Positions 16,447 to 42,277 of a stretch of 64,000 nt of DNA are shown here, piece by piece. Positions within the stretch are counted from its first letter, which is position 1. Every line of letters begins with the position of its first letter. This DNA comes from Candidatus Xenobia bacterium (lineage in GTDB: Bacteria; Vulcanimicrobiota; Xenobia; Xenobiales; QWHO01), in assembly GCA_045863235.1 (NCBI GenBank), contig BTUM01000008.1, positions 1 through 64,000 on the forward strand, in the 5' to 3' direction. A program made the position numbers and the translations under genes. A model generated the notes under the pieces. The model was not told the DNA's origin and did no database searches. It saw only the letters and a list, made by a program, of their open reading frames with translations.

Positions 16447-16479
16447 TTTCAGTGCCCTTTCAGCCCGACAACCTACTCT
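16447..16479 (+). promoter_or_regulatory. direct-repeat box plus -10 element
   Basis: TTTCAG-TGCCC-TTTCAG-N10-TACTCT upstream of ORF 16537. Confidence 0.7.
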
Positions 16480-16536
16480 TCAAAAAGATAACTCAGCGTT
16501 AACAACTGCCTGGCCAGGCGTGATAGGATGTAGGAA

Positions 16537-17295
16537 ATGTCAGACGCCATCGAGGAAATCGGACGCCGCAACGGAGACAAACGCAACGAGGCCATGGAGG
16601 CCTGGGCTGCGATGATCTATTCCGACCAGAGCCGCCGCGGCGATCTGGCCGTGGTGCAAGAGAGCGCCGGATGCGGTGGCTCGAGCGTGCCCAAGGATAC
16701 GCTGCAGCTGACCGACCCCAAGAAGATCGCCAAGCTCAAAGAGGTCAAGGCCGCCCAGGAAGCCCTCAAAGCCGAGCAGGCCCGCACCCGCGACACGGTG
16801 CAGAAGTCCGAGCCGGTCGAGCCCGCGATGGCCACTCAGGCCCCGGTCGAGGCCCGGCGCGAGGTCGCCAAAGTGCAGGCCACCCGCCAGACCCAGGAGA
16901 CCGCAACCCGCCAGGTGCGCCAGGGCGAGGAAGCCCGCGAGCAGGCCCAGGTGGCCCGCGAAGAGGCCGTCCAGGCCCAGACCGCAGCACCCGATGTCGA
17001 GATTCCCGCCACCCTGGGCAACTCCAAGGAAGCCGGCGAGCAACTCTCGCAAGTGCGCAGCCTGACCGCCACCAGCAGCCCTGACCAGGTTGACAAGACG
17101 CGTGAGGCCGAGGCGCCCGAGCCGGTCGTCGAGGTGGATTCGGCCGAGCAGGCGGCCTTGCTGGCCGCACTCAAGTCGGGCGCGGGCGCCAACCCCGATC
17201 TGGTAGCCAAAGCTTACGTGCAAGCCACCAGCATGGAGGGCGTCAAAGGCACGCTTCAGGAAGAGATGCTGCGGGGCTTCGTCGTAGCCCTGTGA
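16537..17295 (+). CDS. hypothetical Ala/Glu/Gln-rich, largely disordered/coiled-coil protein
   Basis: Long ORF with host-like codon usage, AGGA RBS, own promoter box; no signal peptide. Confidence 0.75.
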   Translation: MSDAIEEIGRRNGDKRNEAMEAWAAMIYSDQSRRGDLAVVQESAGCGGSSVPKDTLQLTDPKKIAKLKEVKAAQEALKAEQARTRDTVQKSEPVEPAMATQAPVEARREVAKVQATRQTQETATRQVRQGEEAREQAQVAREEAVQAQTAAPDVEIPATLGNSKEAGEQLSQVRSLTATSSPDQVDKTREAEAPEPVVEVDSAEQAALLAALKSGAGANPDLVAKAYVQATSMEGVKGTLQEEMLRGFVVAL

Positions 17296-17855
17296 GACGA
17301 GTCCTTCTCCTGGTCTGGGTCGGGCTGGCGGCCGGTCTGGCTCTGGCCACCGACGAAGCTTCCTTTCGCCAGTTGCTCGAGCCCCTGTCGCTGACGTTCA
17401 CGGCCCCGGCTGGATTCGAGCCTATTGCTCCGCCCGAAGGCTGCGACTACGCCCTCAAAGGGAGCACCGGCGAGCTTCGCTACGCCATCCGACCGCTGGC
17501 GGCCCAGGTAGAGGCTTACCAGAAAAGCCAGGAGCCGGGCAGCCAGACCGTTGCAGCCGACCCCAACAAGCTGTACTCCACCATGCTGTTGGCGATGGGG
17601 GCCAATCTGGCCGGGGTCTCGCCCGACCGCATCCCCAACCAGGCCTTCAGCCCGCCCAACGTCAAGGCCGAGTTCGGCGCTGACGCCGGCATGACATCGG
17701 CCGTGCCCCTGGGCGATGGCCGGCTCTGCCTGCTGAACGTCTACCACAAGGACAACGTGGCCGACGCCTTCGTCTACTACATCGCCGCTGACATGGAGAC
17801 CCTCAAGGGTCTGATCAACACGCCCGCCGTCTTCCAGGCGCTGCGCTTCAAGTAG
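17292..17855 (+). CDS. exported hypothetical protein
   Basis: Signal peptide MRRVLLLVWVGLAAGLALA; GTGA overlap with previous gene. Confidence 0.7.
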   Translation: MRRVLLLVWVGLAAGLALATDEASFRQLLEPLSLTFTAPAGFEPIAPPEGCDYALKGSTGELRYAIRPLAAQVEAYQKSQEPGSQTVAADPNKLYSTMLLAMGANLAGVSPDRIPNQAFSPPNVKAEFGADAGMTSAVPLGDGRLCLLNVYHKDNVADAFVYYIAADMETLKGLINTPAVFQALRFK

Positions 17856-17871
17856 ACCTCCCGTTCAGGGC

Positions 17872-17900
17872 TTGAATTCTTTGCCTGGTTTATGTATAAT
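17872..17900 (+). promoter_or_regulatory. sigma70-type promoter
   Basis: TTGAAT-17 bp-TATAAT, 10 bp upstream of ATG 17911 (near-leaderless). Confidence 0.75.
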
Positions 17901-17910
17901 TTGTTTCAAC

Positions 17911-18315
17911 ATGGCCAAGCGCAAGAAAATCAGAGGCGACGTCCGGGTTGCTTACCGGGGGCGGACGTTCGGATCCGATCCCGGACTTGACAACCGCCGC
18001 CAGAGCCGACGCATGGCGCGCCAGTTTCCCATCTGGTATCGTCCTGACGGCGAGGTAGAGTTCCAGCGCAGCCGCACGCTCAACTTCTCCAGCAACGGGG
18101 CTCGCATCATGCTGCCAGCTCCGCTCGACCCCGAAGGCGGGCTGTTGCTCGAGTTCGAGCTGGAAGACAAGCTGCGTCTCCAGGCGCGGGCTCGCCTTAT
18201 CTGGCAACGCCCCATGGCCGATGGCAGCACTCTGGCCGGAATCCACTTCGAGCTACCTCCCGACGTGCAGAATCGGCTGAACAACTGGGTCAAGAAGCAG
18301 GCTAAAGCCTCCTAG
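17911..18315 (+). CDS. PilZ domain protein
   Basis: RRQSRR (RxxxR) and NFSSNG (D/NxSxxG) motifs; LAGIHF. Confidence 0.85.
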   Translation: MAKRKKIRGDVRVAYRGRTFGSDPGLDNRRQSRRMARQFPIWYRPDGEVEFQRSRTLNFSSNGARIMLPAPLDPEGGLLLEFELEDKLRLQARARLIWQRPMADGSTLAGIHFELPPDVQNRLNNWVKKQAKAS

Positions 18316-18366
18316 CCCCAGAAGAGCCCCCTCTTTGTAGCGATTTACACGCCAGGAGGGTTGGTT

Positions 18367-20160
18367 ATGCAAGACGGCACCGAGCCGCTGGGGGGCCTTC
18401 GCCGCACCCATCGCTGCGGCGAGCTGCGTACCGAGCACGTGGGCCAGGAGGTCGTGCTGATGGGCTGGGTCCATCGCCGCCGCGACCTGGGCGGGCTCAT
18501 CTTCGTCGAGCTGCGTGACCGCGAGGGTCTGGCCCAGTGCGTGTTCGACTCGGCCGAGAGCAAGTCGGCCTTCGCCCTGGCCGAGCGGCTGCGCTCGGAG
18601 TATGTCGTGGCGGTAGAGGGCCGGGTGCTGCAACGCTCGCCTCAGACGGTCAACCCCAATCTGGCCACCGGAGAGGTGGAGGTGCACGTGGACCGCTTGC
18701 GCCTGCTCAACCCCTCGCGCGAGCTGCCCATCATGGTGGCCGAAGAGCAGAACGTGGACGAGTCCAAACGGATGCAGTATCGCTATCTCGACCTCCGTCG
18801 CCCGCGCATGACCCGCAACATCGTGCTGCGTCACCGCTTCACCAAGGCCGTGCGCGACTTCCTCGACTCGGTGGGCTTTCTGGAGATCGAGACTCCGATG
18901 CTGGTGCGCTCCACTCCCGAAGGGGCGCGCGACTACCTGGTGCCCAGCCGGGTCCACCCGGGCTCGTTCTATGCCCTGCCCCAGTCGCCCCAGCTCTTCA
19001 AACAGCTGCTCATGGTGTCGGGCTTCGATCGCTACTTCCAGATCGCGCGCTGCTTCCGCGATGAGGATCTGCGCGCCGACCGCCAGCCCGAGTTCACCCA
19101 GATCGACATGGAGATGTCCTTCGTGGGGCAAGACGACGTGTTCGGTGTGGTCGAAGGCCTGGTGGCCCATGTCTGGAGCACGGTGATGGAGCACCAGATC
19201 CCCCGCCCCATCCGGCGAATGCACTACAAGGAGGCGGCCGAACGCTACGGCAGCGACAAGCCTGACCTGCGCTTCGGGCTGGAGCTGCACTGCCTGGATG
19301 AGATCGTGCGCGGCAGCGAGTTCACCCCCTTCGAGCAGACCCTGACCTCGGGCGGCTCGGTCAAAGCCCTCGTGGTGCCTGGCAAGGGCGGTATCAGCCG
19401 CAAGGAGCAAGACGAAGTGGGAGCGCTCGTCCCCGGCCTCAAGACCTTCTACGCCTCGCGCCAGCAGGGCGAGCTAAAGTCGTCCTTGCTGGCCAAGCTG
19501 GGCGCCGAGCGGCTCGAGCAGGTCGTGCAGGCCCTGGGCGCGGGTGAAGGCGACCTGGTGGTGATGGCCGCCGGGCCGGCGGCCACCCTGAACGGGCAGC
19601 TTGGCCGCTTGCGCCTGGAGTTGGCCAAACGCTACGAGCTCATCCCCGCCGGCAAGTTCGAGTTCCTGTGGGTGGTCGACTTCCCCCTCTTTGCCTGCGA
19701 CGAGGAGACGGGGCGGCTGGTGCCCGAGCATCATCCCTTCACCTCCCCCCACCCCGAGGACGCCCACATGCTCGACTCGGACCCTCGCCAGGTGCGGGCG
19801 GCGGCCTACGACCTGGTGCTCAACGGCAACGAGGTGGCCTCGGGAAGTATCCGCATCCACCAGCGCGAGATGCAGGAAAAGGTGCTCAACTGCATCGGGC
19901 TCTCGCTCGAGGATGCCCGCCAGAAGTTTGGCTTCTTGCTCGACGCTTTCGAGTACGGAGCCCCTCCCCACGGCGGTATCGCCCTCGGGCTCGACCGCCT
20001 GGTAGCGATCTGCGTGGGCTGCGACTCCATCCGCGAGGTGCTCGCCTTCCCCAAGAATGCCAGCGCCGCAGACCCCATGACCGGAGCCCCGGTGGAGGTC
20101 AGCCAGGACCAGCTGGACATCCTGCACCTCAATGTGCGCGTGCCCCAGGGTGCCCGGTAG
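18367..20160 (+). CDS. aspS: aspartate--tRNA ligase
   Basis: RTHRCGEL, GWVHRRRDLGG, FYALPQSPQLFKQ, RCFRDEDLRADRQPEF, PPHGGIALGLDR. Confidence 0.98.
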   Translation: MQDGTEPLGGLRRTHRCGELRTEHVGQEVVLMGWVHRRRDLGGLIFVELRDREGLAQCVFDSAESKSAFALAERLRSEYVVAVEGRVLQRSPQTVNPNLATGEVEVHVDRLRLLNPSRELPIMVAEEQNVDESKRMQYRYLDLRRPRMTRNIVLRHRFTKAVRDFLDSVGFLEIETPMLVRSTPEGARDYLVPSRVHPGSFYALPQSPQLFKQLLMVSGFDRYFQIARCFRDEDLRADRQPEFTQIDMEMSFVGQDDVFGVVEGLVAHVWSTVMEHQIPRPIRRMHYKEAAERYGSDKPDLRFGLELHCLDEIVRGSEFTPFEQTLTSGGSVKALVVPGKGGISRKEQDEVGALVPGLKTFYASRQQGELKSSLLAKLGAERLEQVVQALGAGEGDLVVMAAGPAATLNGQLGRLRLELAKRYELIPAGKFEFLWVVDFPLFACDEETGRLVPEHHPFTSPHPEDAHMLDSDPRQVRAAAYDLVLNGNEVASGSIRIHQREMQEKVLNCIGLSLEDARQKFGFLLDAFEYGAPPHGGIALGLDRLVAICVGCDSIREVLAFPKNASAADPMTGAPVEVSQDQLDILHLNVRVPQGAR

Positions 20161-20165
20161 GTTTT

Positions 20166-20187
20166 TTTCAGTCGGCACGGTTACTAT
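20166..20187 (+). promoter_or_regulatory. single-copy TTTCAG box plus -10 element
   Basis: TTTCAG-N10-TACTAT upstream of cdd; upstream half-site degenerate (CGGTAG). Confidence 0.5.
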
Positions 20188-20219
20188 CCGCATGAGCTTT
20201 ATCATCCGGAGGGTATACC

Positions 20220-21335
20220 ATGATTATCGGGACTCAGAGTTTCCAGCCGCCGTCCGCCGGGCGCACCGTCTCCACCGCCTGCAACGGCGGTTGCAGCCAC
20301 AGCCGCGATTCGGCCCAACTCGGCGATCCCACCAGCCTTCCGGATGTCTGCCCCAAGAGCCTGGCCAAAGGGATCACCCGCCCCTGCCCCCTGAAGGTGG
20401 CCCTGCAGGCCCGGGTAGCCTCCGAGACGGTGGCCCAGCAGCTGACCGGCATCCCGGTGTCGCCCGTGCTGAGTAAGCCCGACCCGGCCACCACGCAGAA
20501 GCTGAAAGAGCTGCTTCCCGACAAGCCCTTCGTCATCGAAGCCGGCCGGGCGGCCGAGCTGGCCAAGACGCTGGGCATCTCGGGCGAGCAGCTGATGCTC
20601 GAGCTGATCCCGGTGGCCAAGGAGATGGCCCGCCCCCCCGTGTCCGAGTATCTGGTCGGCGCCGTAGGCCGGGGCGAAAGCGGCAACCTCTATCTCGGCG
20701 TCAACCTCGAGTTCGGCAAGCAAGCCCTCAATCAGACCACCCACGGCGAGCAGTTCGTGGTTCAGAACGCGATGCACGCCGGGGAAGCGCGCCTGACCAG
20801 CCTGGCCGTTTCGGCCGAGCCCTGCGGACACTGCCGCCAGTTCCTCAATGAATTGACCGGAGCCAAAGAGCTCGAGATCCTGATCCCCGAAAAGCCCAAG
20901 GTGCAACTCAAGGAGCTGCTCCCCCGCGACTTCGGCCCCCAGGACCTGGGCGTCAAGGCGGCCGTGCTCTCTCCTCAGGCCCACAGCCTGAGCCTGCCCG
21001 AGGCCGACGAGCTGACCGGTCAGGCCCTCCAGGCCGCCAACAAGTCCTACTCGCCCTACAGCCAGAGCCCCTCGGGCGTGGCCATCCAGCTCAAGGACGG
21101 CTCGGTCTTTACCGGCTCTTACATCGAAAACGCTGCCTTCAACCCCAGCCTGTCGCCCCTGCAGGCAGCGCTGATGAACGTGGTGGCGGCCAAGAGGTCT
21201 TACGAGGAGATCGACCGGGTGGTGCTGGTCGAGCGCCAGGACGGCAAGGCCAGCCAGGACTTCGCCACCAGCGCGGTGCTGGCCAGCATCGCGCCCAGCG
21301 CCGAATACACGGTTCGCCAGGCCAAAGGAGAGTAA
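20220..21335 (+). CDS. cdd: cytidine deaminase (two-domain homodimeric type) with ~90 aa N-terminal extension
   Basis: GVNLEF, HGEQ, PCGHCRQF Zn motifs, second domain SYSPYS...ENAAFNPS. Confidence 0.92.
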   Translation: MIIGTQSFQPPSAGRTVSTACNGGCSHSRDSAQLGDPTSLPDVCPKSLAKGITRPCPLKVALQARVASETVAQQLTGIPVSPVLSKPDPATTQKLKELLPDKPFVIEAGRAAELAKTLGISGEQLMLELIPVAKEMARPPVSEYLVGAVGRGESGNLYLGVNLEFGKQALNQTTHGEQFVVQNAMHAGEARLTSLAVSAEPCGHCRQFLNELTGAKELEILIPEKPKVQLKELLPRDFGPQDLGVKAAVLSPQAHSLSLPEADELTGQALQAANKSYSPYSQSPSGVAIQLKDGSVFTGSYIENAAFNPSLSPLQAALMNVVAAKRSYEEIDRVVLVERQDGKASQDFATSAVLASIAPSAEYTVRQAKGE

Positions 21336-21342
21336 ATTCCCG

Positions 21343-22866
21343 ATGCAAACCCCGAGCGTGGGAGGGGGGCCTAACAATCCGAGTGTGCGACTCACGTTGC
21401 TGCACACCAATGACGTGCACGGCTTCGTGCTGCCGGTGGAAGACAAGGTGGTGCTGGGCCAGAAGGTCAAGCTGGGCGGCGCGGCCCACCTGGCCACCCT
21501 GGTCTCGCAGAAGAAGGCCGAGAACCCAGGCAACACCGCGCTCGTCGACTGCGGCGACGCTGTCCACGGGGCCCTGACCACCGACTTCGACCAGGGCCGG
21601 TCGATGGTGGACGTCATGAACCGGGTGGGCTATGACGTGGCCACCCTGGGCAACCACGACTTCCAGTGGACCGTTCCGGTTCTGGAAGAGCGCCTGCAGG
21701 CCACTCGCCACCCGGTCGTGCTGGCCAACGTGGAGAAAACCGACGGCAGCCGTCTGCCCAACACTTCTCCCTATGTCATTCGCGAGCTGGGGGGCCTGAA
21801 GGTGGCCTTTATCGGTCTGGTGACCGAGGATACGGGCACCCAACAGCGGGCCGACCGGGTGCGCGGGGCCCGCTTCCAGACCGCCGAGAGCGCCTTGCGT
21901 CAGCAAATCGCGGAGGCCCGCGGGGACGGGGCCGAGGTGCTGGTGGTGGTCAGCCACTGCGGCCTGCCGGCCGACGTCCGCATGGCCGAGCAGTTCCCCG
22001 GACAGGGCCTCGTCTTCCTGGGCGGACACAGCCACGATCGCACCGAGAAGCCGCTCAACGTGGCCGGCAACATCCTGGTTCAGGCCGGCTCTCTGGGCAA
22101 GGAGCTCGGGCAACTCGACCTGGAGATCGACCTGGTCACCAAACGCGTGGTGGGGACGGACTTCAAGCTGCTCACCGTCAACCCGGAAGAGATCCCGGCC
22201 GATCCCGAGATCGAGCGCCTGGTGCAGAGTTACGAGCAGCGAGCCCGAGTGGCCATGGGCGCGGTGGTGGCCCACCTGCCGGCCACGCTGACCCGCAGCC
22301 GGACCACCGATTCCGGGGTCGGCAACCTGGTTTGCGACGCCATGCGCGAGATGGCCGGGGCCGAGCTCGCCTTCACCAATGCCGAGGGGCTGCGCTCCGA
22401 CCTTCCGGCCGGCCCCGTCACACGCGGCCAGCTCTACGACGTCACCCCTTATGGCGGGCAGCTCAAGGTTGGCAAGATCAAAGGCAGCGACGTGCAGGAG
22501 GCGCTGGAGCACTCGTTGCTCGAGTGGGAAGAAGACCACGGCCTGCAACTCGGCTTCCTGCAGGTCTCCGGGCTCAAGTTCCAGTACGACAGCAACAAGC
22601 CCCAGGGGCAGCGGATCGTGAGCGTGGAGGTGGGCGGCCAGCCGCTCGAGCCCGAGCGTGAGTACACCATCGCGCTGGAGGATTACCTGGCTACCGGCAA
22701 GCTGGGCTACGACGCGCTCGCCCGCGGCCAGTACCACGAGGTGGGCAACACCGTGATGGAGGCCCTGGAGGAGTACATGGTGGCCAAGAACGGCCAGCTC
22801 AATCCCGCCAGCGAGGGCCGCATCGTGGATGTGGCGCTCCGGGCAAAGCCCCTGGCTGGAACGTAA
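21343..22866 (+). CDS. 5'-nucleotidase / UDP-sugar hydrolase family metallophosphoesterase, no Sec signal
   Basis: LHTNDVHG, DCGD, LGNHDF, SHCG, GGHSH; C-terminal domain with FLQVSGL. Confidence 0.92.
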   Translation: MQTPSVGGGPNNPSVRLTLLHTNDVHGFVLPVEDKVVLGQKVKLGGAAHLATLVSQKKAENPGNTALVDCGDAVHGALTTDFDQGRSMVDVMNRVGYDVATLGNHDFQWTVPVLEERLQATRHPVVLANVEKTDGSRLPNTSPYVIRELGGLKVAFIGLVTEDTGTQQRADRVRGARFQTAESALRQQIAEARGDGAEVLVVVSHCGLPADVRMAEQFPGQGLVFLGGHSHDRTEKPLNVAGNILVQAGSLGKELGQLDLEIDLVTKRVVGTDFKLLTVNPEEIPADPEIERLVQSYEQRARVAMGAVVAHLPATLTRSRTTDSGVGNLVCDAMREMAGAELAFTNAEGLRSDLPAGPVTRGQLYDVTPYGGQLKVGKIKGSDVQEALEHSLLEWEEDHGLQLGFLQVSGLKFQYDSNKPQGQRIVSVEVGGQPLEPEREYTIALEDYLATGKLGYDALARGQYHEVGNTVMEALEEYMVAKNGQLNPASEGRIVDVALRAKPLAGT

Positions 22867-22930
22867 TTCGAGCGCCCGCTGCCTTGAGCGGGGGGGGAAA
22901 CCCGACCGAGGGGAGAGAATTTCCGACCCA

Positions 22931-23299
22931 GTGGAACGCAACACCCGCCAGCGCGACGCCATTCGCAAAGCCCTCGTCGAGGCCGACCGGCCGCTCAGCC
23001 CGGCCGAAGTGCTGGCGGCGGCCAAGGAGTTCTCGCCGGGGCTTGGAATCGCTACCGTCTACCGCAACCTGAAGGGGCTGGAAGAGGAATCGCTGATCGC
23101 CCGCATCGAGCTACCCGGCGAGGCGCCCCGCTTCGAGATGGCCGGCAAGCACCACCACCATCATTTCCACTGCCGCACCTGCGGCAAGGTGTTCGAGGTG
23201 GAGGGTTGTCCGGGCGATCTCTCGGCTCTTTCTCCGCCCGGTTTCCGGCTCGAGGGCCACGAGCTGGTGCTCTACGGCACCTGCACTTTCTGTCCGTAG
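22931..23299 (+). CDS. Fur family transcriptional regulator
   Basis: TRQRDAI, ATVYRNL, HHHHFHCRTCG, C-terminal CxxC. Confidence 0.92.
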   Translation: MERNTRQRDAIRKALVEADRPLSPAEVLAAAKEFSPGLGIATVYRNLKGLEEESLIARIELPGEAPRFEMAGKHHHHHFHCRTCGKVFEVEGCPGDLSALSPPGFRLEGHELVLYGTCTFCP

Positions 23300-23598
23300 C
23301 GATAGACGAAGAAGCTCAAGCCTCCCAGCGACAGCGCCCAGCCCCAGCCCATGAAGCCGAACGCCCACATGGTCACGGGCACGGTCAGGTTGACCAGGGA
23401 TGCGTAATGCGCCAGCGTCAAGGTCACCGGCGTCTCCTTCCAGAACGAGATCAGCCACAAACAGGCAGCGGATGCCAGGAAGACGATCCCGAGCAAACGC
23501 ACCGGCCCGTCAAACCAGACCAGGATGAAGCCCAGGATGCCGTCGAGCAGCATCAACATCACGCCCAGAAAACGGGCGAACACCGGCTTGAGACTCAC
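23272..23598 (-). CDS. small 4-TM membrane protein
   Basis: Hydrophobic ORF overlapping neighbours in an operon. Confidence 0.6.
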   Translation of the reverse strand: MSLKPVFARFLGVMLMLLDGILGFILVWFDGPVRLLGIVFLASAACLWLISFWKETPVTLTLAHYASLVNLTVPVTMWAFGFMGWGWALSLGGLSFFVYRYGQKVQVP

Positions 23599-26490: not shown

Positions 26491-29400
26491 TCAGATCACC
26501 ACCCGATGGCTCTCACCCGGCTCCAGGCGCAGCCGGTAGCGCACCCGGCCATCGCTCTGGGGTACCTCCTCGGGCCCCCGCCCGGGCGGCAGAGGCGGGG
26601 TGAGCACCTCGACTGCCACCGGCGTGCCACTCAGCGAGAGCTGGTAGCTCTCCGAGTCGTATCGCTGCTCTACCTGCCACTCTCCGCGGCCGGCCGGGTC
26701 CTTCAGGTCCAGGCGGATGGATGAGCCTTCCAGGGCGGTCGGGATGTGAGGAGCCACGCTCAGCTTGCCGGGCTCGCTGTGCAGCCCGGCCACGACCTCC
26801 ACCAGGCCCCAGGGAAGCGAGGCGTTGGTCCAGCCAAACCCCGGGCCCTCGCCCTGGGTCTCCTCGTAGCGCCCCTTCTGCACCGGGGGCGGCCCGCCCG
26901 AGACCACATCATAGCGCTCGAGGATGGTTCCGTCCCGGCCCTCGACCTTCTCGATGGTATCCAGCCACTTGCCGATCCAGCGGCTGGCAGCCTCATAGTC
27001 GCCATAACGCACGGCGCCCTCGATGGCCATCATGTGCAGGGGGGCCCAACCCGAAGGGCCGTTCCACTGCATCTCGGGATGTCCGTAGTCCTCGGCCGTG
27101 GCCGCCAGGCCATGCTCTTTCTCGAAACGGCTCAAACTGGCCAGGCTACGCTCGATCATGCGCTTCTCGGCCGGCACCGAAGGATCGAGCATCCCGGCCC
27201 AGAGCGGCCCGGCAGCAGCCGCCAGGGCGTCCTGATCGCGGCACAGTCCCTTGTCGTGGCCCTGGAAGCGGTAGTCCCGGAACATGCCGTCCTCTTCGTC
27301 CCAGCACAGGCGCAGAACCGACTCCTTGCGCAGAGCGGCCTCCTGGCGCCAGTGAGCGGCCTCCTGACCCTTGCCCAACTGGTCCGCCATGGCGGCCATG
27401 TCGTTGGAGTAGCGATACAGGAAGGCGTTCAGGTCGGGCGGCACCAGATCCAGAGTGCGGTCGTAGAAACGCGAGGTGGTGTCGAAGCCCGATTCGTCCA
27501 TGGCAAACTTGTGGTTGGGCCCGCCCCAACGCGCCAGGCGCACCGACTGGCCGTTGATCTGGGAGATTCCCCGCTCTCCCTCCTGGCACCAGAAATCCCT
27601 GTAGTCACCGCTCATTGCCTGGTAGGCCTTCTCCAGCCAGAGGTCGGCCTCGACCTGGCCCTCCTGAGCAGCGCGCAGAGGGTGGCTCATGCGCACGAGC
27701 TGTGGCAGGATAGGCGGTTGGGACTTGTTGAGGTAGACCGAGCGCGCCGCGTTGGGAACGCGCCCGGTGGAATCGAGCAAGAAGAGCAGGTTGTCAGCCA
27801 TCCCGGCCACCGTCTGGCCGGCCCCCTGCCAGCGCATGCCCATCGCCATGAACAGGGTATCCCAGTTGAACTGGGTCTTGAAGATGCCCAGGCTGGGCAC
27901 AGCCGCTTTGTGAAAGATGGGCATGGCCGAATCTTTGGTCACCACCGAAGGCTCGATGGTGAGCGGCTCCCAGCCGGTGGCGACGCGCTCGTAGAGGCGG
28001 TTCCAACCGGGGCGGCCGGAAAGCGGGCCCAACCCGGTCGCCGGGGTCGCGCTCGGCTCGTTGAGCCAGTCGCGCTGATGGTCGAAGAAACGCTCCAGGG
28101 CCGGGTTGCCGCCGGCACGGAAGAAGGCTCCCAGAATGCTCTGGGGCAGCTTGACCCGGCCCGAGGCGGGCAGCTCCTCGCGGGCGTAGAGCCGGTCACC
28201 CAGCAGCAGGCTGTCGCCCAGGGCGGCCACCAGCAAGCAATCCGAGCCCTTCTGCAGTTGGAAGACGCCCGGCGCCAGCACGGCCAACTCGGCGTCCGGC
28301 AGCTCGATGGAGAAGGGGCCCACTCGGAAAGGACCCTCCAACTTCTGGGAGGCCTGGCGCGAGAGCGGCTCGTTGCCGTAGACCAGTCCGGTCAGACCGC
28401 GTCCCTGCACGGCCGAGATCGCCGTGGGAGAGAACAGGCTTTCGTGCAACTCCAGCATACGCCGATCGCCGGGGCCGGAGGTGGGCTCCAGGCCGACCAG
28501 CTTCTGGCGATGAGCCCCCAGCGGGCTGATCGGGGCCTGGTAAGAAGAGGTCGCCGGAGGCCGCGGACCGAGCAGGTCGCGCACCTCGGAGGGTGAGGCC
28601 AGCTGACGACCCGCGCTATCCCAGAGCAGGCCCTCGGGCGTACGCAGCCGTTCCAGGCTGGCCAGCATGGCGCGGGCGCGGGGGTCGTCGCCCTCGAGCA
28701 CGCCGGCCCGGAGCACCGCCAGGCTGGCCAGGGTCTCCACCGGCGAGCGCCGGTCGCCCTTGAGGTCGCGGAAGGTCTCGCTGTCGGGGTCCCACATGGT
28801 CGCCAGCATGCGCTCTTTGCGAAGCTCCGCCTTCTGGTTCCAACTGGCGGCCTCGTCCGAGCGTCCCAGCCGGGTGGCCATGGTGGCCAGGTCCTTCTCG
28901 GTGCGATAGAGCCAGGCGTTCAGGTCCACCGGCGCGTAGGCCATGGGGTCGCCGTTCTCGAAGCGGTGGGCGTTCTTGGAGCCACCCGACTCCTCCAGCG
29001 TGGCCTCGGGCGAGTAGTCCACATCGCAGAATCGGTTGAGCCCATTGGGAAGCTGCTTGAAGTAACCATCGCTCCAGGAATTGCGATGATCAGATGCGAT
29101 CACGTCGTAGGCTCGGCGCAAGAAATCCGGGTCGTGCGGCTCTTGCAGCACCAGCTCGGAGAAACGGGGCATCCCGGAGCGACCCAGCTCATTGAGCTGG
29201 TTGGAGCCGGGCAGCACGCCGTAGCGCTCGCCCAGGCTGAGAAAGTTCTCCAACAGTCCCCGGGCCGCCTGGGGCTGCCCCTGAGCCCGCAGCTCGGTCA
29301 CCAGGGTGGGCAACTCGTTCAACTCCAGAGCCGAGCCTGGATAGGGGAAAGGCACGTCGATGCGCTGCTGGCTCAGCTGGCCGGTGAAGGTCCAGCCCGG

Positions 29401-35156: not shown

Positions 35157-35997
35157 GAGAGGGAGAGAAGCCTGTACCAGTCTTGGAGGGCTCCTCTGGG
35201 AGTGGCTCGTAAGCGCGGTAGACCTGGATGGGCAGAGAGACCCGCTCCTCGCGCCCCCCGCCCTTTGGGGTGAGGCCGACCCGAAAGCCGTAGTGCACCC
35301 GAAACAGGCTCCACTCGCCCGAGAATGGTGCCGTCTCCTCGATGGGGAACTCGAAGTAGCCGTTAAGGGGCAACTCGGCCTGGGGGGCGGGCTCGATGTC
35401 GTGGCTCTGAACCCACAGCACCTTGCGATAGTCGCTGACCTTGGATTCCTCGATGGCCGCAAACCGAAAGCTGATCCGGTCAGGCAGGTGGGACTCGGAC
35501 TGCTCTCGCTCCAGCACCAGCTCTCCGCGCAGACTCTCGGCCGTGTACAGGTGGGAAGCATGCAGCAGCCCGGTCAGCTTGATTCCGTCGTTCTCAACCA
35601 CCAGCTCGGCACTGGCCGAATCCGGGAAAGGGTCTTCGGGAGGGAGCACGGTCAGGTGCAGCCGGTTGATCTCCTCGAGAATCCGGGGACGAGCCCGCGC
35701 CTTCAAAAAATACTGGCAGCGCAGGTCCCAGCTCGCGTAGCTGGGAGGCGTGCGCTCGGGTAGCTGAAACCGAAAGGGCTCGCGCTGCGTGCGTTCGCCA
35801 GAGGAGGTAAAGGTGTGCACCTGCTCGACCAGCGGCAGCACATAAGAACGAAACAAGTGATTGGCGCCCACGATCTCCTCGCCCTGGAGGGAGACGGTGA
35901 CCTTGACCCCCTTAGGATAATCGGCCAGCTCGACTTCGCCTTCCACCACATCCCCCGGACGCAAAGTCTGCCGCTCGACGTTCAGCTCGAGTTTCAC
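35140..35997 (-). CDS. arrestin-fold / Spo0M-like protein (two beta-sandwich domains)
   Basis: LRPGDVVEGEVEL...PFRFQLPERTPPSY...YFLKARA; second domain FEFPIEETAPFSG; start reassigned to GTG 35997. Confidence 0.7.
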   Translation of the reverse strand: MKLELNVERQTLRPGDVVEGEVELADYPKGVKVTVSLQGEEIVGANHLFRSYVLPLVEQVHTFTSSGERTQREPFRFQLPERTPPSYASWDLRCQYFLKARARPRILEEINRLHLTVLPPEDPFPDSASAELVVENDGIKLTGLLHASHLYTAESLRGELVLEREQSESHLPDRISFRFAAIEESKVSDYRKVLWVQSHDIEPAPQAELPLNGYFEFPIEETAPFSGEWSLFRVHYGFRVGLTPKGGGREERVSLPIQVYRAYEPLPEEPSKTGTGFSPSPQTEL

Positions 35998-36033
35998 CCG
36001 CCCCCCTTCGCGGAGAGCCCTGCACCGCCCCTG

Positions 36034-36066
36034 TTTCAGGGGCTTTTCAGCTGCTGGCGGTATTCT
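36034..36066 (+). promoter_or_regulatory. direct-repeat box plus -10 element
   Basis: TTTCAG-GGGCT-TTTCAG-N10-TATTCT upstream of ORF 36098. Confidence 0.7.
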
Positions 36067-36097
36067 CAAGCCACAACCAGCAGGAAGGAGAGCCCAG

Positions 36098-36577
36098 ATG
36101 TCTCAGTCCCTAGCAGATCGCGAACGGCGCACATACGATGTGCTCTCTGGCAACAAAGGCCAGCGCAAGCAGGGGTTTCAGCAGCAGCGCTTCCTGCGAG
36201 GTTCGGCGGCTCCGCCCAAGAAGGACGAGAAGAAGGCCGAGGAGCCCCCCCGTCGCCACTGGGCCGAGTTACTGGCGACCATCGAATGGGCCGAGCGGGT
36301 GGCCGGCATCTACAATCTTGACCGTGAGCCGGTTGTCGAGCCGGCGGCCGTCGTGGCCGAGATCGAGGAAGAGCGGTGGACCGTGCCCACCCAGTTCAAG
36401 GCTCCGGTTCAGGTCAACGAAGGCCAGAAGCTCGACATGAACAGCATTCTGCTCCACTCCATGACCACCAGCGCTCCCATCAATCAGGCCGAGGCTGCGC
36501 CGGCAAACGGCAACGTGCTCAGTCCCGACCTCCCCATGATGCAACTGCAGATTCTGGCGCTCCGCCCCCGCTTCTAA
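36098..36577 (+). CDS. hypothetical protein
   Basis: AAGGAG RBS, host-like codon usage, promoter box. Confidence 0.75.
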   Translation: MSQSLADRERRTYDVLSGNKGQRKQGFQQQRFLRGSAAPPKKDEKKAEEPPRRHWAELLATIEWAERVAGIYNLDREPVVEPAAVVAEIEEERWTVPTQFKAPVQVNEGQKLDMNSILLHSMTTSAPINQAEAAPANGNVLSPDLPMMQLQILALRPRF

Positions 36578-36694
36578 AGTGCAAGGCCTTAGGTCTTGCA
36601 CTTTACAACGCGCTGGAACGCAGTTCCGGCGCGTTCGTCAGACGAGCACATTCGTCCATCTTCCTCGCGGGAGGCTCATGACCGTTCCGGGACT

Positions 36695-37612
36695 TCAGGT
36701 AGAAGCTCGTGGGTGGACGCGAGTGACCGCCCAGGCCCGAATGGAGGAGTCGTTGTCGCGGACGGCCTGGCGCATGTACGTCTCTCCCTCCAGCTTCTCA
36801 CCCAGCGCGTAGGCCCTCCGCCGAATGGTCGGCTGGTCATGACGCGTGGCCAACTCGAGCACCTGACGCCGGATGGGCGACTGGAGCGAGCCACCAGCCG
36901 ACTCCAGCACGTCCAACAGGCCATGCACCGCGTGAACCGGGTCTTCCCAGTCAGCCAGGCGCTCGAGGCCCATGCGAAGCACTACCGGAGCATCCTCGCC
37001 CTGGGCCACCAAACCCACCAGAGCCGACCGCACAAGCTCTGACGGCGGGGGGGGCACCTGGCTGAACACGGCGGCCACCTCTTCGGGGACTTCCGTTCCC
37101 AGGGCCCACAACAGGACGGAGCGGCGGTCGGCCGGGTGCATCCAGGCAGCGGTCAGCAACTTCTGCAGCAGGGCCGCCCGACCGCGCGGCGAGAGGAGAC
37201 TGCAACTGAGCAATTGCAGAGCCACCGCCACCCGCAGCGGACGGCGCAACTCCTCCAGCGGGAGCAGGGACTCGGCAACCTCCAGAGTCTCGGCTTCCTT
37301 CAAAGCCCCTTCGTCGGGAGGACCGATGGGCAGCCGGGAAACAAAGCTCAACACCACTTCGGCGCGGGCCAGCCCGCTCTTGACCATCCAGCCCAGAGCC
37401 TGGATGCCCCCCGGACCGGGCCCGGCCAGGCGGGCGTAAAGCTCGGCGCGCAAGCCGGGGGCCAGATTGGGCTCAGCGTGCACTTCCTGCACCAGCAGAT
37501 CGGTGAAAATCGGGTTCTGCAGCACACCCTCGCTCAGCTCGTCCTGACCGAAACGGCGCAGGGCCCGCCGCAGCGGGCGCTCTAACTCGCTTCTTGACAA
37601 CAGCTCTTCCAT
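36695..37612 (-). CDS. hypothetical alpha-helical (HEAT-like) protein
   Basis: Leu/Ala-rich helices; C-terminal HEAT-like IRRRAYAL...DNDSSIRAWA. Confidence 0.65.
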   Translation of the reverse strand: MEELLSRSELERPLRRALRRFGQDELSEGVLQNPIFTDLLVQEVHAEPNLAPGLRAELYARLAGPGPGGIQALGWMVKSGLARAEVVLSFVSRLPIGPPDEGALKEAETLEVAESLLPLEELRRPLRVAVALQLLSCSLLSPRGRAALLQKLLTAAWMHPADRRSVLLWALGTEVPEEVAAVFSQVPPPPSELVRSALVGLVAQGEDAPVVLRMGLERLADWEDPVHAVHGLLDVLESAGGSLQSPIRRQVLELATRHDQPTIRRRAYALGEKLEGETYMRQAVRDNDSSIRAWAVTRVHPRAST

Positions 37613-37691
37613 GGCCGTCGGGTATTACACCACCTGAGCGGACCTCCCTGCTACACTCCCGTTTTGACCTGCTCGGAATGAGAACGCGCGG

Positions 37692-37756
37692 GGAGCTACG
37701 TTCTCGCCCCCCCCCCCGCCTCCGCCACCACAAGATGGGGTTTCGGCTGCGCTCCT
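37692..37756. repeat. dispersed intergenic repeat copy B
   Basis: GGAGCTACGTTCTCG...TCCGC...TTTCGGCTGCGCTCCT, similar to 12866-12933. Confidence 0.5.
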
Positions 37757-37773
37757 ACTCAGGAGACGCCCGG

Positions 37774-38661
37774 TCAGCGCAAGATCTTCTGGGCTTTCTT
37801 GAGGGCGTTCTTCTCGTTGATGTAGGAAAGCTTGCGATAGGCCTCGCTGATCTCGAACCAGGCCACCTCGTCTGCCTCACCGTCCCGCGGCGTGGCGTTC
37901 TCCTCGACGAGTTGCATCAGGTAGAAGAAAACGAACTTGTGATAGAGCGTCTGGGTTTCCTTGAGGAAGAAGTAGTATTCGATCTCGTGCAGCTTGTCGA
38001 TCGCCTGAGTGCGATGGCCAGTCTCCTCGAGTATCTCGCGCTCGGCCGTTTGCTCGTAAGTCTCTCCCTTGTCCACCCGGCCTTTGGGCAGGGCCCAGAT
38101 CCGTCCTCCTCGCTTGGAGACAAGACAGACCTTGTATTTGTTCTTCTCGCGCTTGAAGACCACGCCGCCGGCGGACATTTGCAGCGCCTCGGGTGTAGCC
38201 GTGGCCGACTGGGCGCCCTCGGAGCCAAACCGGACCGGCCCTCCCAGGAAGTTAGAAAACTGTCCGGGGCTGCTGGCCAGCGCCTGTTGGGCCAGTTGAC
38301 TGGCCGGGTGGTCAGGGAAAATCGGCTCGAAGCGAAACTCAAAGGCGAGCTCGCGCAGTTGCTTGCGAGCCCGAGAGAGTCCCTCGGCCAGGGCTCGGTC
38401 GTCCGGGGACGGCTGGGCCTCGAGTAGATGGCCCCGCAGCCACTCAGCCTCGGTGTGAATGATGACCTGCTGAGGTTGGTTTCGATTTACCTCTTCGAGA
38501 CTGCGGATCAGAGCCATCAGTTGGGCCTGCTCGACCGAAGCCGAGCCGGCTCCCTGACTGATGCGGCGCACGGTGAGCTGGTCGCTCTCCAGAGTAATGC
38601 CCATCCCGGCCCGAGGTGGGTCGGCCTGGTGGGCCGTCGCAATGGTTACAACCAGCTTCAT
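37774..38661 (-). CDS. RNase H-like (degenerate) domain fused to Nudix hydrolase
   Basis: Nudix box GRVDKGETYEQTAEREILEETG; N-terminus follows RNase HI pattern (PPRAGMG, AQLMALIRSL, VIIHTEAE, ASQLAQQAL). Confidence 0.8.
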   Translation of the reverse strand: MKLVVTIATAHQADPPRAGMGITLESDQLTVRRISQGAGSASVEQAQLMALIRSLEEVNRNQPQQVIIHTEAEWLRGHLLEAQPSPDDRALAEGLSRARKQLRELAFEFRFEPIFPDHPASQLAQQALASSPGQFSNFLGGPVRFGSEGAQSATATPEALQMSAGGVVFKREKNKYKVCLVSKRGGRIWALPKGRVDKGETYEQTAEREILEETGHRTQAIDKLHEIEYYFFLKETQTLYHKFVFFYLMQLVEENATPRDGEADEVAWFEISEAYRKLSYINEKNALKKAQKILR

Positions 38662-40136
38662 TCGGGCCCGAAGTTGAAGTCCTCGGGCTCTTGCTTCTCG
38701 AGCTTGACGTCGCGGGCCAGCGTGAGGTCGAAGAAAACCCAGGCCCGGGTGTCGAGGTCTCCACGGGCGGCCGTTCTCCAACTGGAGATGCCCGGATAGA
38801 CTTTGATCGTCTGACTTCCAAATCTCTGCTCGAGATCGGCCGCAAATTGGCGGAGCAGATTGCGGATGATCCAGGGATTGAACTCGTACATCATGGGCAC
38901 CACGAAGTCGACCTTCCAGCCCATCCAGTCCTGACAGCAAAAGTCATAACCCGACAGTCGAAAGCGACCATTGTCGCGATCTCGATAATAGAGGGGGAGA
39001 ACCGCTGCCGACAGGGCCCGGTGAGGCCCCAGCATCGGTCGCAAATCGTCCACCAGGAGTCGCAAGCTCTCCTCGCGGCGACGAAGAATTTCGTGACAGC
39101 GCGCATACTGCTCACGCAGGGTGGGGTTGGAGGCTTCATAGTAATTGTAAGCCCCGTCGCGGATGCCAAGCCACTCGGGCAAGCCCTGCCCGTCCACCGG
39201 AAAGCGGACGTGGTCCATGTGCAGCCCAGCCACCCCCGGATGGCCCTGAATGATGCCTGCAAGGGCGCCCTTCAAGCGCTTGCGCACCTGCTCCGACTCC
39301 GGATTGACATAGATGGGGCGAAGCAGCTTGCGGCGAGGAGCGGGGAAGGGGTCTTCCTGGGGGCCGATCAGAAGAAAATCAGGTGGATGGGCCCCAGCCC
39401 GCATGGCCTGACGGAGAACGGTTCCCAAAGGGCTTCCCTGATCGTTCACCCCGTGACGGGCCAGGATGGCGGAGATGTCCCGGGCCTCGGAACTGGTCTC
39501 AAACAGCCTGGCAGTCTCGCGCATGATGGCCACGGTATCGGGGGCCGCGCCCGGCCGTCCGTCCAAACGGGCCGCCTCGCGTCGCAAATAATCAGACATC
39601 AGCTCGTTCCACAGGCTGGGACCGCTGTGCCACGGCAGCATGGCCGTGGTGTTGTCCATCTTCCAGTAGAACATGTGGCACCAGGCGTGCACCTCGATGC
39701 CCTGATTGCGGCCTTCCTGAATGAAGATCTGCAAGGTGTCGATCACCTCGTCTCCTTCGGTTCGGAAGTTCCAGCTCAGATGGGGGTAGACCGGAACCCC
39801 GGCCTCACCCGGTTTGTAAGGCACCACGCGGGCGGTGTGGTTCTTGATCTCCACTGCGGGGCAGATTGAGTAGCCGCGCAGCAAGGTCTCCAGGAAGACG
39901 GACGTGACACCCTGCTTGGCCAGGTGGGCCATCGTCTGGCGGGCCACCCGGCGCACCTCGAACTCGTTGTACTGGCGCGTGCCCGGCAAGAGCCAGTCGG
40001 GAGAGAGCCAGACGCCAACCATGGGAGGCTCGAGCTCATAGCTGTCCTGGGCCCACAGGGGGGCGATCAAACAGAGCCAAAGAATCGAAAGAATCAGGAA
40101 CGCATTCCGCAGCGCCATCAAGCGACTTCTCCGCAC
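38658..40136 (-). CDS. exported GHL10/DUF187-like glycoside hydrolase
   Basis: Signal peptide; MVGVWL, GIEVHAW, YVNPESEQVR, GLHMDHVRFP, QDWMGW, DFVVPMMY. Confidence 0.8.
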   Translation of the reverse strand: MRRSRLMALRNAFLILSILWLCLIAPLWAQDSYELEPPMVGVWLSPDWLLPGTRQYNEFEVRRVARQTMAHLAKQGVTSVFLETLLRGYSICPAVEIKNHTARVVPYKPGEAGVPVYPHLSWNFRTEGDEVIDTLQIFIQEGRNQGIEVHAWCHMFYWKMDNTTAMLPWHSGPSLWNELMSDYLRREAARLDGRPGAAPDTVAIMRETARLFETSSEARDISAILARHGVNDQGSPLGTVLRQAMRAGAHPPDFLLIGPQEDPFPAPRRKLLRPIYVNPESEQVRKRLKGALAGIIQGHPGVAGLHMDHVRFPVDGQGLPEWLGIRDGAYNYYEASNPTLREQYARCHEILRRREESLRLLVDDLRPMLGPHRALSAAVLPLYYRDRDNGRFRLSGYDFCCQDWMGWKVDFVVPMMYEFNPWIIRNLLRQFAADLEQRFGSQTIKVYPGISSWRTAARGDLDTRAWVFFDLTLARDVKLEKQEPEDFNFGPE

Positions 40137-40316
40137 GAATCTTGAGTGGCCGCCTCGGCCCTGGGCCGCACGACTTTATGAGAATTCAAGCCGGAGCGCT
40201 CAGATCCTCCCCGGAGCGTGGCTGCAGCCAGGGCGTGAGCCCGGGGGCGAAGTCTGACTGTCGTGATGAAGGTTGGGCAGAGCGCGTCCGGCGCAGGGGC
40301 AAGAACGCTCGACAGA

Positions 40317-42209
40317 TCAGAAGCCGAAACCCCCGAACATGAAGGGGGTCATCATCATGGGCATCATCATCATCGGCATCATCATCATCGGCAACATGCT
40401 GATCATGCTGATGGCCGGCATCAGGCTCATCATCGACCACATCGGCGCATTGTTCATGGGCGGCATCCCCATGGGCGGCATCTGCATCTGCTGCCAGGGC
40501 TGCTGCTGAAACTGGCCGTAGGACTGCATCGAGGGAGGGAGGCTGCCAGGGTGGGGCTGGTAAGGCATCTGGATCCCCGAGTAGCCCTGGTAGGGGTCGT
40601 AATAAGCCTGCCGCGGGTCGTAGTAAGCTTGCTGCTGGGGTCGGCTATTGGGCTGATGCGCCTGGAATCCGCCCATCTGCTGCCAATCATCGGCATAGCT
40701 CTGCGGCTGAACCGGAGGAGTGGGGGCGGGGCCGGGCGCGAAGTCACCCCAACGGCCCCACCACTGGTTGGAAGCCGGTTGCTGCGAGGCAGGAGCAGGT
40801 CCCGGAGCAGCCGTCTGCGCCGGGGCGGCACCGAAGTCGCCCCACTGGCCAAACCAGCTGCTGGAAGGCTGGGGGGGAGCGGGAGTCGCTGCGGAAGCGC
40901 TCTGAGACGGGGCGGAGCCAAAGTCGCCCCACTGACCGAACCAGCCGTCCCCTGGCTGAGAGGAAGACGGCGGCGCCTGGGGTGCAGGTTGAGAGGCTTT
41001 CCCGAAATCGCCCCACTGGCCCCACCAGTCGCTCCTGGGGGAGGGTGGAGGCACCTGGAATCCGTCGAACACGCGGTTCTGCCCCCCGGGCGCGATGACC
41101 GGTTCCTCGCTTCGGGGAGGGGGGGCGATCTCGAACTCCTGGGGAGGCGGGGCAGGATGCTGGCGGTCGAACTCCTCGAGATTGATCTGCGTGCGCGCAA
41201 AGGAGCCAGCCTGGGTGGAGCCGAGGCCCTGCTGGCGCATCTGTTCCATCAGGACATAGGGATCTTTGGGCTCGGAAGCGGCCGGCTGCGAAGCAGGAGC
41301 TGCCACTGCGTCAGCAGGCGTGGGGCTCGACGGCGCCTGGCTCACCTGCTCCTGCGTGGTTTCGGGAGGCAGGACTCCATTGGCCCGCATGTCCTCGAGC
41401 ATCTGGGCCATGTCGCCGGTGACGGGCTCCTTGAGCGGCCGAGGAATCTCACGATTTTCTTGAAGAGACGGGGGCGCGACTGTCTCAGACACCGTCTCGG
41501 GGGGTTGAGTGACGGCCGCCGAACTCTGGACAGCAGGCTCCGGGGCTGGCTGCGGGGGCGCAATGGGCGGAACGGGCTCGGCTGTGCTGGGGCTCTGCAA
41601 GCCAAGCTGCTGAGACGCAAAACCCGAGACCGGTGTACTGCCCATGCCCTTGCGGCGCATCTCTTCCAGCCTGGCCCATGGATCCTGGCTTACGGGCTGG
41701 GGAACCTGGGACTGAACGGAAACCTCAGGCGGGGCCTGCTCGGAAACGACCGGCTCGGGAGCTGGCGGGGAAGCGGCTTGCTCGACGACAGGCGCGGCAG
41801 CGGGCGGAGGCGGGCCAGGAGGCTCGGGGATCTCGACGCCGGCCCGGCGCATGTTGGCGATCATCTCGCGCATCTCTTCCGAAACCGGCTCTTTGACGAC
41901 GATGGGTCGGGCGGGTTGAGGCTCGACAGCCGGCTGCTCGGGAGTGGACGGGGGGGCGACCGGCTGCTCGGGAGCGGCCTGAGTTAGCGGAGAACCCTGG
42001 CCGAAGGAGACCTGGCCGGCGACGATGGGGCCCATGGCCGTGCTGCCCAGTCCCTGCTTGCGCATCTGGGCCATTCGCTCATAAGGATCGACCGACGCGC
42101 CAACCTTGTCCTCGGGCTCGGAGCTGGTGACGGTCGGGTTGCCGTTGCTGGCGACAGGTCGCCCCGTCATGCCTGGATCGAACCCGGGAATCATCGGATT
42201 GACCGCCAT
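40317..42209 (-). CDS. Pro/Gln-rich low-complexity protein with internal repeats
   Basis: 630 aa ORF, GGAGGTGA RBS, three repeat families and Met-rich tail. Confidence 0.8.
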   Translation of the reverse strand: MAVNPMIPGFDPGMTGRPVASNGNPTVTSSEPEDKVGASVDPYERMAQMRKQGLGSTAMGPIVAGQVSFGQGSPLTQAAPEQPVAPPSTPEQPAVEPQPARPIVVKEPVSEEMREMIANMRRAGVEIPEPPGPPPPAAAPVVEQAASPPAPEPVVSEQAPPEVSVQSQVPQPVSQDPWARLEEMRRKGMGSTPVSGFASQQLGLQSPSTAEPVPPIAPPQPAPEPAVQSSAAVTQPPETVSETVAPPSLQENREIPRPLKEPVTGDMAQMLEDMRANGVLPPETTQEQVSQAPSSPTPADAVAAPASQPAASEPKDPYVLMEQMRQQGLGSTQAGSFARTQINLEEFDRQHPAPPPQEFEIAPPPRSEEPVIAPGGQNRVFDGFQVPPPSPRSDWWGQWGDFGKASQPAPQAPPSSSQPGDGWFGQWGDFGSAPSQSASAATPAPPQPSSSWFGQWGDFGAAPAQTAAPGPAPASQQPASNQWWGRWGDFAPGPAPTPPVQPQSYADDWQQMGGFQAHQPNSRPQQQAYYDPRQAYYDPYQGYSGIQMPYQPHPGSLPPSMQSYGQFQQQPWQQMQMPPMGMPPMNNAPMWSMMSLMPAISMISMLPMMMMPMMMMPMMMTPFMFGGFGF

Positions 42210-42244
42210 CAGCTCACCTCCCTTCCACCAGCCCCTCGCCCCTC

Positions 42245-42277
42245 AACCTACCGCGAGCCTCTCAAAAGAGACTGAAA
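42245..42277 (-). promoter_or_regulatory. direct-repeat box plus -10 element
   Basis: Minus strand TTTCAG-TCTCT-TTTGAG-N10-TAGGTT upstream of ORF 42209. Confidence 0.65.

Follow-up and report, generated by a model that had tools for sequence, protein, structure and literature searches.

What reads the paired hexamers that recur ahead of unrelated orphan genes in the genome of a Candidatus Xenobia bacterium, and what do these genes have in common? The window analysed here is the first 64,000 nt of one contig (C8, accession BTUM01000008.1) of an 8.36-Mb draft assembly (GCA_045863235.1; 166 contigs, 65.8% G+C, 97.6% complete), and at three places on it two TTTCAG-like hexamers, separated by 5 nt (N5), are followed after a further 10 nt (N10) by a TAnnnT -10 element. 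This 33-bp arrangement, hereafter the box, recurs at about 380 promoters of the genome, most of which appear to drive leaderless orphan genes with a shared N-terminal peptide. Its layout and its analogy with known activator sites suggest, with a probability that we put at roughly 60%, that it is docked by a dimer of a winged-helix-turn-helix (wHTH) activator of the PhoB type or of the Streptomyces antibiotic regulatory protein (SARP) type, standing in for a -35 contact.

Three boxes in the window

The sites and target genes in the window are the following (scores in bits refer to the weight matrix described in the next section).

16447..16463, + strand: tandem TTTCAG-N5-TTTCAG box, predicted activator site at about -39 to -23; 26.7 bits
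16474..16479, + strand: -10 element TACTCT, 10 nt past the proximal repeat, i.e. in the enriched N10 spacing class
16537..17295, + strand: target gene, 252-aa orphan; no Pfam family
36034..36050, + strand: tandem TTTCAG-N5-TTTCAG box; 30.3 bits
36061..36066, + strand: -10 element TATTCT
36098..36577, + strand: target gene, 159-aa orphan; no Pfam family
42261..42277, - strand: tandem TTTCAG-N5-TTTGAG box; 29.7 bits; kept at three orthologous loci
42245..42250, - strand: -10 element TAGGTT, invariant in the orthologue alignment
40317..42209, - strand: target gene, 630-aa orphan starting M-A-V-N-P; no Pfam family
20166..20187, + strand: half-site promoter, proximal TTTCAG (20166-20171), N10, TACTAT (20182-20187); 20.9 bits
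29557..29579, - strand: doubtful site, TTTCAG-N11-TAAGAT, with the trehalase ATG 9 nt on; below 12 bits

A sequence-only reading of the window had proposed three full boxes, each with a TAnnnT hexamer after N10 and each ahead of a co-oriented orphan gene, together with a half-site before cdd and a weaker one before the trehalase gene. The three boxes and their orphans are all present as described, and the half-site, which precedes cdd (20220-21335) and a 5'-nucleotidase gene (21343-22866), is borne out by its repeat, spacing and score. The trehalase site exists as sequence and was dropped, both for its score and for its N11 spacing, a class that is not enriched genome-wide (10 vs 8 in the control). 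The strict repeat pattern, TTTSAG-N5-TTTSAG, occurs three times in the window as against a mean of 0.01 over 100 dinucleotide-preserving shuffles, none of which reached three; a chance origin of the window boxes is excluded.

The three window promoters belong to a minority type in which a leader with a Shine-Dalgarno site separates the promoter from the gene (about 50 nt for the gene at 16537, as estimated from sequence positions). Directly past dnaK, a G+C-rich hairpin followed by a T run (16398-16425) looks like an intrinsic terminator and, on that reading, the box at 16447 would open a new transcription unit. The 252-aa orphan behind it has only six homologues among 5.8 billion proteins.

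A dispersed promoter box with rigid geometry

There are 78 copies of the strict pattern in the genome, from which the weight matrix was built and refined in three rounds, the same sequences read backwards serving as control. At thresholds of 16, 18 and 20 bits it matches 420, 382 and 355 sites, as against 22, 7 and 1 in the reversed sequence, a frequency far above background (382 vs 7 at 18 bits), as the earlier proposal of a genome-wide regulon had presupposed. The roughly 380 sites are spread over 113 of the 166 contigs, about 6% of the genes carry one, and their consensus is TTTCAG-nnTTy-TTTCAG-N10-TAnnCT, the proximal repeat being better conserved than the distal one.

The spacing is all but invariant. 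Between the repeats, a gap of N5 was found 78 times (0 in the control) and N6 11 times (vs 5), the remaining gaps being at background. Between repeat and TAnnnT, N10 was found 138 times (vs 7), with N9 (5 vs 9) and N11 at background and a second peak at 21 nt that corresponds to the distal repeat. With the -10 hexamer placed at -12 to -7, the repeats fall at -39 to -34 and -28 to -23, so that neither is where a sigma-70-type -35 would be, and the site logo shows nothing resembling a -35 at 16-18 bp. The PhoB-like architecture that had been suggested from the window, 11-bp-period direct repeats 10 bp before TAnnnT and no -35, therefore holds genome-wide. The bases before the box and those inside the 10-nt gap have no information content, and the sites are therefore not copies of a mobile element.

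Placement was assessed for 385 sites scoring at least 18 bits, by comparison with random positions and with a set of 6182 genes (84% coding) called crudely from third-position G+C (GC3), whose start codons are inferred. Intergenic sites number 270 of the 385, while 17.6% of random positions are intergenic; a further 76 overlap nothing but their own target open reading frame (ORF), in its over-called 5' part, and 39 lie inside another gene. A co-oriented ORF follows at 90% of the sites, and the enrichment in intergenic, co-oriented positions that the sequence-only reading had named as a check is thus evident. Moreover, a well-supported ORF has its first start codon 5-9 nt past the -10 at 236 of the 385 sites (5.6% of random positions), most often at 6 nt (120 sites) or at 7 nt (58 sites). 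Leaderless genes in Actinobacteria and Deinococcus have the same layout, a TAnnnT -10 about 6-8 nt before the start. This spacing implies leaderless mRNAs, transcription presumably beginning at or beside the start codon. Leaderless-type promoters without a box also occur in the genome and have the same -10 flavour as those with one, TAnnCT with a G two bases upstream, which argues for one sigma factor at both kinds of promoter.

Orphan targets with a common N-terminal peptide

The target set is dominated by orphans. By BLAST, 196 of the 379 downstream proteins are singletons, and there are two paralogue clusters, one of 22 proteins (~400 aa, PQQ_2 propellers) and one of 21 (~1300 aa). At the Pfam cut-off, no family was found for 22 of 37 randomly chosen targets and for 28 of 37 chosen non-randomly, i.e. 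50 of 74 together; about two thirds of the neighbouring genes, which were scanned for other reasons and are not a proper control, have a Pfam family. Targets that can be named include acyltransferases, a dual-specificity phosphatase, a glycerol-3-phosphate dehydrogenase, an alpha-amylase, a P450, an HD-GYP protein and a VWA protein, several of which bear 90-310 additional N-terminal residues.

The N-termini themselves are unusual. Position 3 is occupied by I, V or L in 62.5% of the leaderless set and in 20% of other genes, and expectation maximisation found a motif, P-x-[DE]-[RQS]-[VLF]-x-[LP], whose acidic residue lies at median residue 28. It is present in 46% of the leaderless set, a figure inflated to some degree by the fact that the motif was trained on that very set, as against 2.6% for an internal stretch of the same proteins and 5.3% for other N-termini. 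It also occurs in 20% (vs 2.5%) of the box genes that have a leader, which were outside the training set, and this argues for a feature of the protein rather than an effect of the RNA start. Only 12 of the 379 products (866 of 5853 other genes) have a Sec-like hydrophobic stretch at their extreme N-terminus, while a first hydrophobic stretch at residues 13-100 is found in 91 of 379 (825 of 5853). The notion of a genome-wide set of orphan genes poor in signal peptides, first advanced from the window, has therefore stood up.

The pattern extends to two relatives, G013 and G040, which belong to another family and another class. An ORF lies downstream of 25 of their 27 strict-pattern sites, 12 of these ORFs being of the leaderless type and seven carrying the peptide motif (2 of 16 internal controls).

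Conservation in the large-genome families

The relatives surveyed were 41 genomes of the order and a sample of 151 genomes of the phylum, in which f1 and f2 (5-9.5 Mb in f2) are large-genome families and f3 (1.9-4.7 Mb) is a small-genome one. Among the 41, the strict 33-bp pattern occurs in 4/4 genomes of the same genus, 16/16 of f2, 1/1 of f4 and 1/19 of f3, with no match in any reversed genome. In the phylum sample it occurs in 2/2 of f1, 13/13 of f2, 2/2 of f4 and 1/17 of f3, in 0/82 of f14 and 0/10 of f18, and as single matches in four further families, the reversed control giving one match in total. The pattern of half-site plus -10 tells the same story: it is found 143 times in G013 (35 in reverse) and 25 times in G040 (4 in reverse), and 4, 6 and 34 times in three f3 genomes (12, 0 and 25 in reverse). 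Two large-genome families and a class-level relative share the box; in small-genome relatives it is not conserved.

Conservation can also be followed at a single promoter. Relatives of the 630-aa orphan were found in metagenome-assembled genomes titled Candidatus Eremiobacteraeota or Vulcanimicrobiota and on one 3-kb contig labelled Burkholderiales. Box and -10 are kept at all three orthologous promoters, including that of an orthologue of 39% identity, while the flanks drift. As for the protein, the model retrieved from the Atlas is of low confidence (pLDDT 0.41) and gave no usable look-alike.

What reads the box

A layout equal to that of the pho box and close to that of SARP boxes is the reason for reading the site as that of a head-to-tail winged-helix dimer. 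In this model, an activator of the OmpR/PhoB or SARP type would bind the tandem TTTCAG repeats head to tail, the bound dimer would make up for the absent -35 contact and bring in RNA polymerase with a housekeeping-type sigma factor, and one signal would presumably switch on all ~380 sites, the factor most plausibly acting as an activator and not as a repressor.

The closest parallel is the E. coli pho box, described as tandem repeats of 11-bp period that lie 10 bp upstream of a TAN3T -10, replace the -35 and are reported for eight operons (PMC1906773). Period and N10 distance are found here too. However, the letters of the repeats (TTTCAG) and the scale (~380 promoters vs 8 operons) differ, and the targets are mostly leaderless-looking orphans in a genome in which no PhoU or PstS-type domain was found. 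SARPs are described as binding side by side, as a dimer, to direct repeats 11 bp apart that overlap the -35, where they touch sigma region 4; the rule given is that the repeats are 11 or 22 bp apart and that the 3' repeat lies 8 bp from the -10 (PMC10936776). The present repeats resemble the afs box of the SARP AfsR in being 11 bp apart over the -35 and spacer, and proteins combining wHTH and BTAD domains are abundant in the genome, but the conserved hexamer ends 10 rather than 8 bp from the -10 (whether this departs from the rule hinges on the end assigned to the repeat unit), and SARPs govern single biosynthetic clusters whereas the box stands before hundreds of dispersed genes. The Streptomyces coelicolor PhoP unit, given as the 11-nt G(G/T)TCAYYYR(G/C)G, likewise occurs as tandem units near the -35 and has the TTCA core in common with the box (PMC2275107). 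It differs in that two to eight units occur in a varied layout, instead of always two at one fixed place.

In the organization of its regulon, the box is also reminiscent of the rhizobial tts box read by TtsI and the Xanthomonas PIP box read by HrpX, short boxes at a set distance from the -10 through which one activator controls dispersed genes for secreted proteins. The likeness to the tts box is one of layout only; the tts and PIP consensus sequences differ from that of the box, and these systems accompany injectisomes whereas only a flagellar-type apparatus was found here. A search on the export-gate proteins FHIPEP and FlhB gave no injectisome-type cluster with its own OmpR-type regulator, the sole full copies of the two genes lying in that flagellar-type cluster.

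The same site might be read by something other than an activator dimer. Polymerase could recognize the repeats directly, through an unusual sigma factor or a lineage-specific adaptor bound to sigma, in which case the box would define a promoter class. Promoter elements are spaced just as rigidly, some 6% of the genes bear the box and it is restricted to a lineage, all of which would suit such a factor. Yet the -10 is an ordinary TAnnnT, the same as in boxless promoters, two identical direct repeats 11 bp apart suggest two identical DNA-binding domains rather than one sigma region 4, and gaps of 10 and 21 bp misfit the textbook -35 to -10 distances of the sigma-70 family, so that direct reading is unlikely. 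About as unlikely is that the box is an operator, on which a repressor or silencer dimer would cover the -35 and spacer of -35-independent promoters and keep them off until a signal removes it. Such a view would account for the overlap of the site with the core promoter (-39 to -23), the frequent G two bases before the -10 (278 of 472 sites) could form an extended -10 that enables initiation without a -35, and boxless leaderless-type promoters do exist in the genome; but a repressor needs no exact distance to the -10, which is hard to reconcile with the N10 peak and its background-level neighbours N9 and N11, and the layout matches activator boxes as these are described (PMC1906773; PMC10936776).

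That the box merely travels with a dispersed repeat or with duplicated gene cassettes, with no common regulator, is extremely improbable. Although both paralogue clusters carry the box and the genome does contain a 70-bp dispersed repeat, the sites have no sequence in common beyond the repeats and the -10, more than half of the target proteins (196/379) are singletons, and the box stays at orthologous promoters as the flanks drift.

The activator-dimer reading nevertheless has several points against it. A site that overlaps the core promoter would also suit a repressor, and rigid spacing would also suit direct reading by a sigma-like factor. The GC3-based gene calls leave start codons inferred, and the RNA runs, available as assembled contigs only, are too sparse to reveal transcription starts: in the window one RNA contig ends at 42239, beside the predicted start of the 42277(-) promoter, while others run across promoters or begin elsewhere, and at a second locus, with five box promoters, contig cover is too thin to read starts. 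To the same side belong three rejected candidates for the regulator and the exclusion of a canonical Pho regulon. The REC+wHTH+BTAD protein on contig C79, whose gene, together with a histidine kinase gene, adjoins three box promoters, has no full-length orthologue in half of f2; a response regulator on C28, encoded downstream of a box, is confined to the genus; and an OmpR-type regulator on C4 recurs, with its recognition helix unchanged, in a genome that lacks the box. The last (205129-205915, - strand), the most conserved of the OmpR-type regulators, has a short PAS histidine kinase as its neighbour; its identity is 96-97% between families and 81-95% in the small-genome family, its nearest models (YycF/WalR, MtrA, PhoB and RpaB) all fall below cut-off, and it is probably an essential global regulator. 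No NCBIfam model reached its cut-off for the C28, C79 or C4 candidates.

The idea of a Pho regulon came from the TTCA core and from several targets that are phosphoesterases or lipid-remodelling enzymes. No PhoU domain was found in the genome, and 13 of 14 control genomes have one; the PstS-type PBP_like_2 domain was likewise not found, and among four same-genus genomes is present in one only. Lacking both is unusual for a free-living 8-Mb bacterium.

Regulators of the kind expected for an activator dimer are nonetheless plentiful; the sequence-only reading had recommended a search for OmpR- or SARP-type proteins. There are fourteen classic OmpR/PhoB-family regulators, and the 26 Trans_reg_C matches in the genome include wHTH+BTAD proteins with the architectures REC+wHTH+BTAD, FHA+wHTH+BTAD and STAND+TPR+BTAD (in the last of which Trans_reg_C is only a weak match below cut-off). 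SARP-like examples lie at C79 7392-8934(-), C115 2269-3433(-) and C31 52019-54785(-). A first search with a whole REC+wHTH+BTAD protein returned 171 candidates here, many of which match the receiver domain alone, as against 12-25 in most genomes of a small-genome genus. In a comparison of wHTH loci that rests on 30 loci from five genomes, the distribution of two regulators across genomes resembles that of the box, one at C22 57817-58519 and one on C58.

A flagellum-derived export apparatus and its possible substrates

The sequence-only reading had further supposed that the products of the regulon might be substrates of a type III or flagellar-type export system. A flagellar-type type III secretion system (T3SS) is indeed encoded on contig C27 (~55,900-79,400), in a cluster that comprises genes for FlhA, FlhB, FliP, FliN, FliM, a short FlgE/F/G-like protein, FliK, an SLT lytic transglycosylase, FliJ, FliI, FliG, FliF, FliE, FlgC and FlgB. 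The one full FlhA (FHIPEP) and the one full FlhB of the genome are both in this cluster, and a second, non-flagellar copy of either was not found (other injectisome parts were not searched for). Flagellin_N, Flagellin_C, FlgI and MotB_plug have no match anywhere in the genome.

A full or near-full FlhA is found in 41 of the 41 relatives and flagellin in eight, each of which has a second full FlhA. In G013 the flagellin locus also encodes FliD, FliS, a sigma factor, MotA and MotB, and its FlhA is 40-54% identical to that on C27, while a second, flagellin-free locus is syntenic with the C27 cluster and has an FlhA of 83% identity. This flagellin-free locus is orthologous to the C27 cluster, and the apparatus is therefore a distinct, order-wide one derived from the flagellum. 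Five further proteins of the genome consist only of the cytoplasmic FlhA-C domain, soluble and stand-alone, two of them fused to FliG_N.

C80, 28011-29436, - strand: stand-alone FlhA-C protein
C3, 26972-28256, - strand: stand-alone FlhA-C protein
C1, ~377670-378254, - strand: stand-alone FlhA-C protein
C106, 14865-16857, + strand: stand-alone FlhA-C protein
C107, 13657-15910, - strand: stand-alone FlhA-C protein

Genomes of f3 have 2-3 FHIPEP matches of the FlhA-C type each, as against 3-19 in f1 and f2, where the count of 3 comes only from a 75%-complete f2 genome. One FlhA-C paralogue sits in an operon behind a box.

It is tempting, if doubtful, to see in the box the master switch of a secretome, the ~380 targets being substrates of the flagellum-derived T3SS that carry a bipartite N-terminal signal. 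The apparatus would in that case have lost filament, P-ring and stator, be order-wide and have acquired as many as 19 stand-alone paralogues of the FlhA-C docking domain, FliG_N fusions among them. Export signals of Salmonella FlgD are described at residues 2-5 and 36-40, with a required separation of at least 19-30 residues (PMC8983047). Products of the regulon are similar to such early flagellar subunits in having a small hydrophobic residue 3 and a second motif near residue 28, but P-x-[DE]-[RQS]-[VLF]-x-[LP] is not FLTLL-like. Two observations speak against a link between apparatus and regulon: the rod, hook-like and FliK-like proteins of the genome all score below the 8-bit cut-off of the peptide motif (the best, 7.4, being the hook-like protein), and f3, a family without the box, has the apparatus too. 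Were the link real, it would be a second, independent conversion of a flagellar export machine into one for protein delivery, in a lineage suspected of predation.

Beside the T3SS cluster (C27 55985-57051, - strand) an 81-aa glutamine-rich protein without Pfam family is encoded by three identical genes in tandem, the last copy behind a box of 26.3 bits.

Novelty and meaning

The layout of the box is of a known kind; what is new are its letters, its scale, its leaderless-looking targets, their shared N-terminal peptide and the lineage. A full-text search of the literature returned no paper linking Eremiobacterota to this motif or to type III secretion. In a phylum of which hardly any members have been cultured, the box makes gene regulation accessible from sequence: a single 33-bp rule predicts, for about 6% of the genes of the large-genome lineage, the promoter, the likely transcription start and the true start codon, and it groups hundreds of orphan genes into one programme. 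Together, box, leaderless layout and N-terminal peptide turn 'hypothetical proteins' into a testable class, and a flagellin-less export machine next to such a regulon raises the question of whether flagellar machines have been turned into secretion systems more than once.

Other features of the window

Two co-oriented ORFs (17292-17855 and 17872-18315) come after the gene for the 252-aa orphan. ARAGORN called a 97-nt tRNA-Gly(ACC) at 26584-26680 (-), within the 3' part of the trehalase ORF; this is probably a false call, Rfam showing no tRNA in the window at gathering score and no match there to any other RNA family. Past the gene for the 159-aa orphan lies a 70-bp element with two hairpins (36572-36642), which gave 62 BLAST alignments across the genome (roughly 35-40 separate copies among the rows shown). 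In the assembled contigs of the RNA runs its depth is much higher and its flanks are many and different, and it looks like a dispersed repeat of the REP or terminator type.

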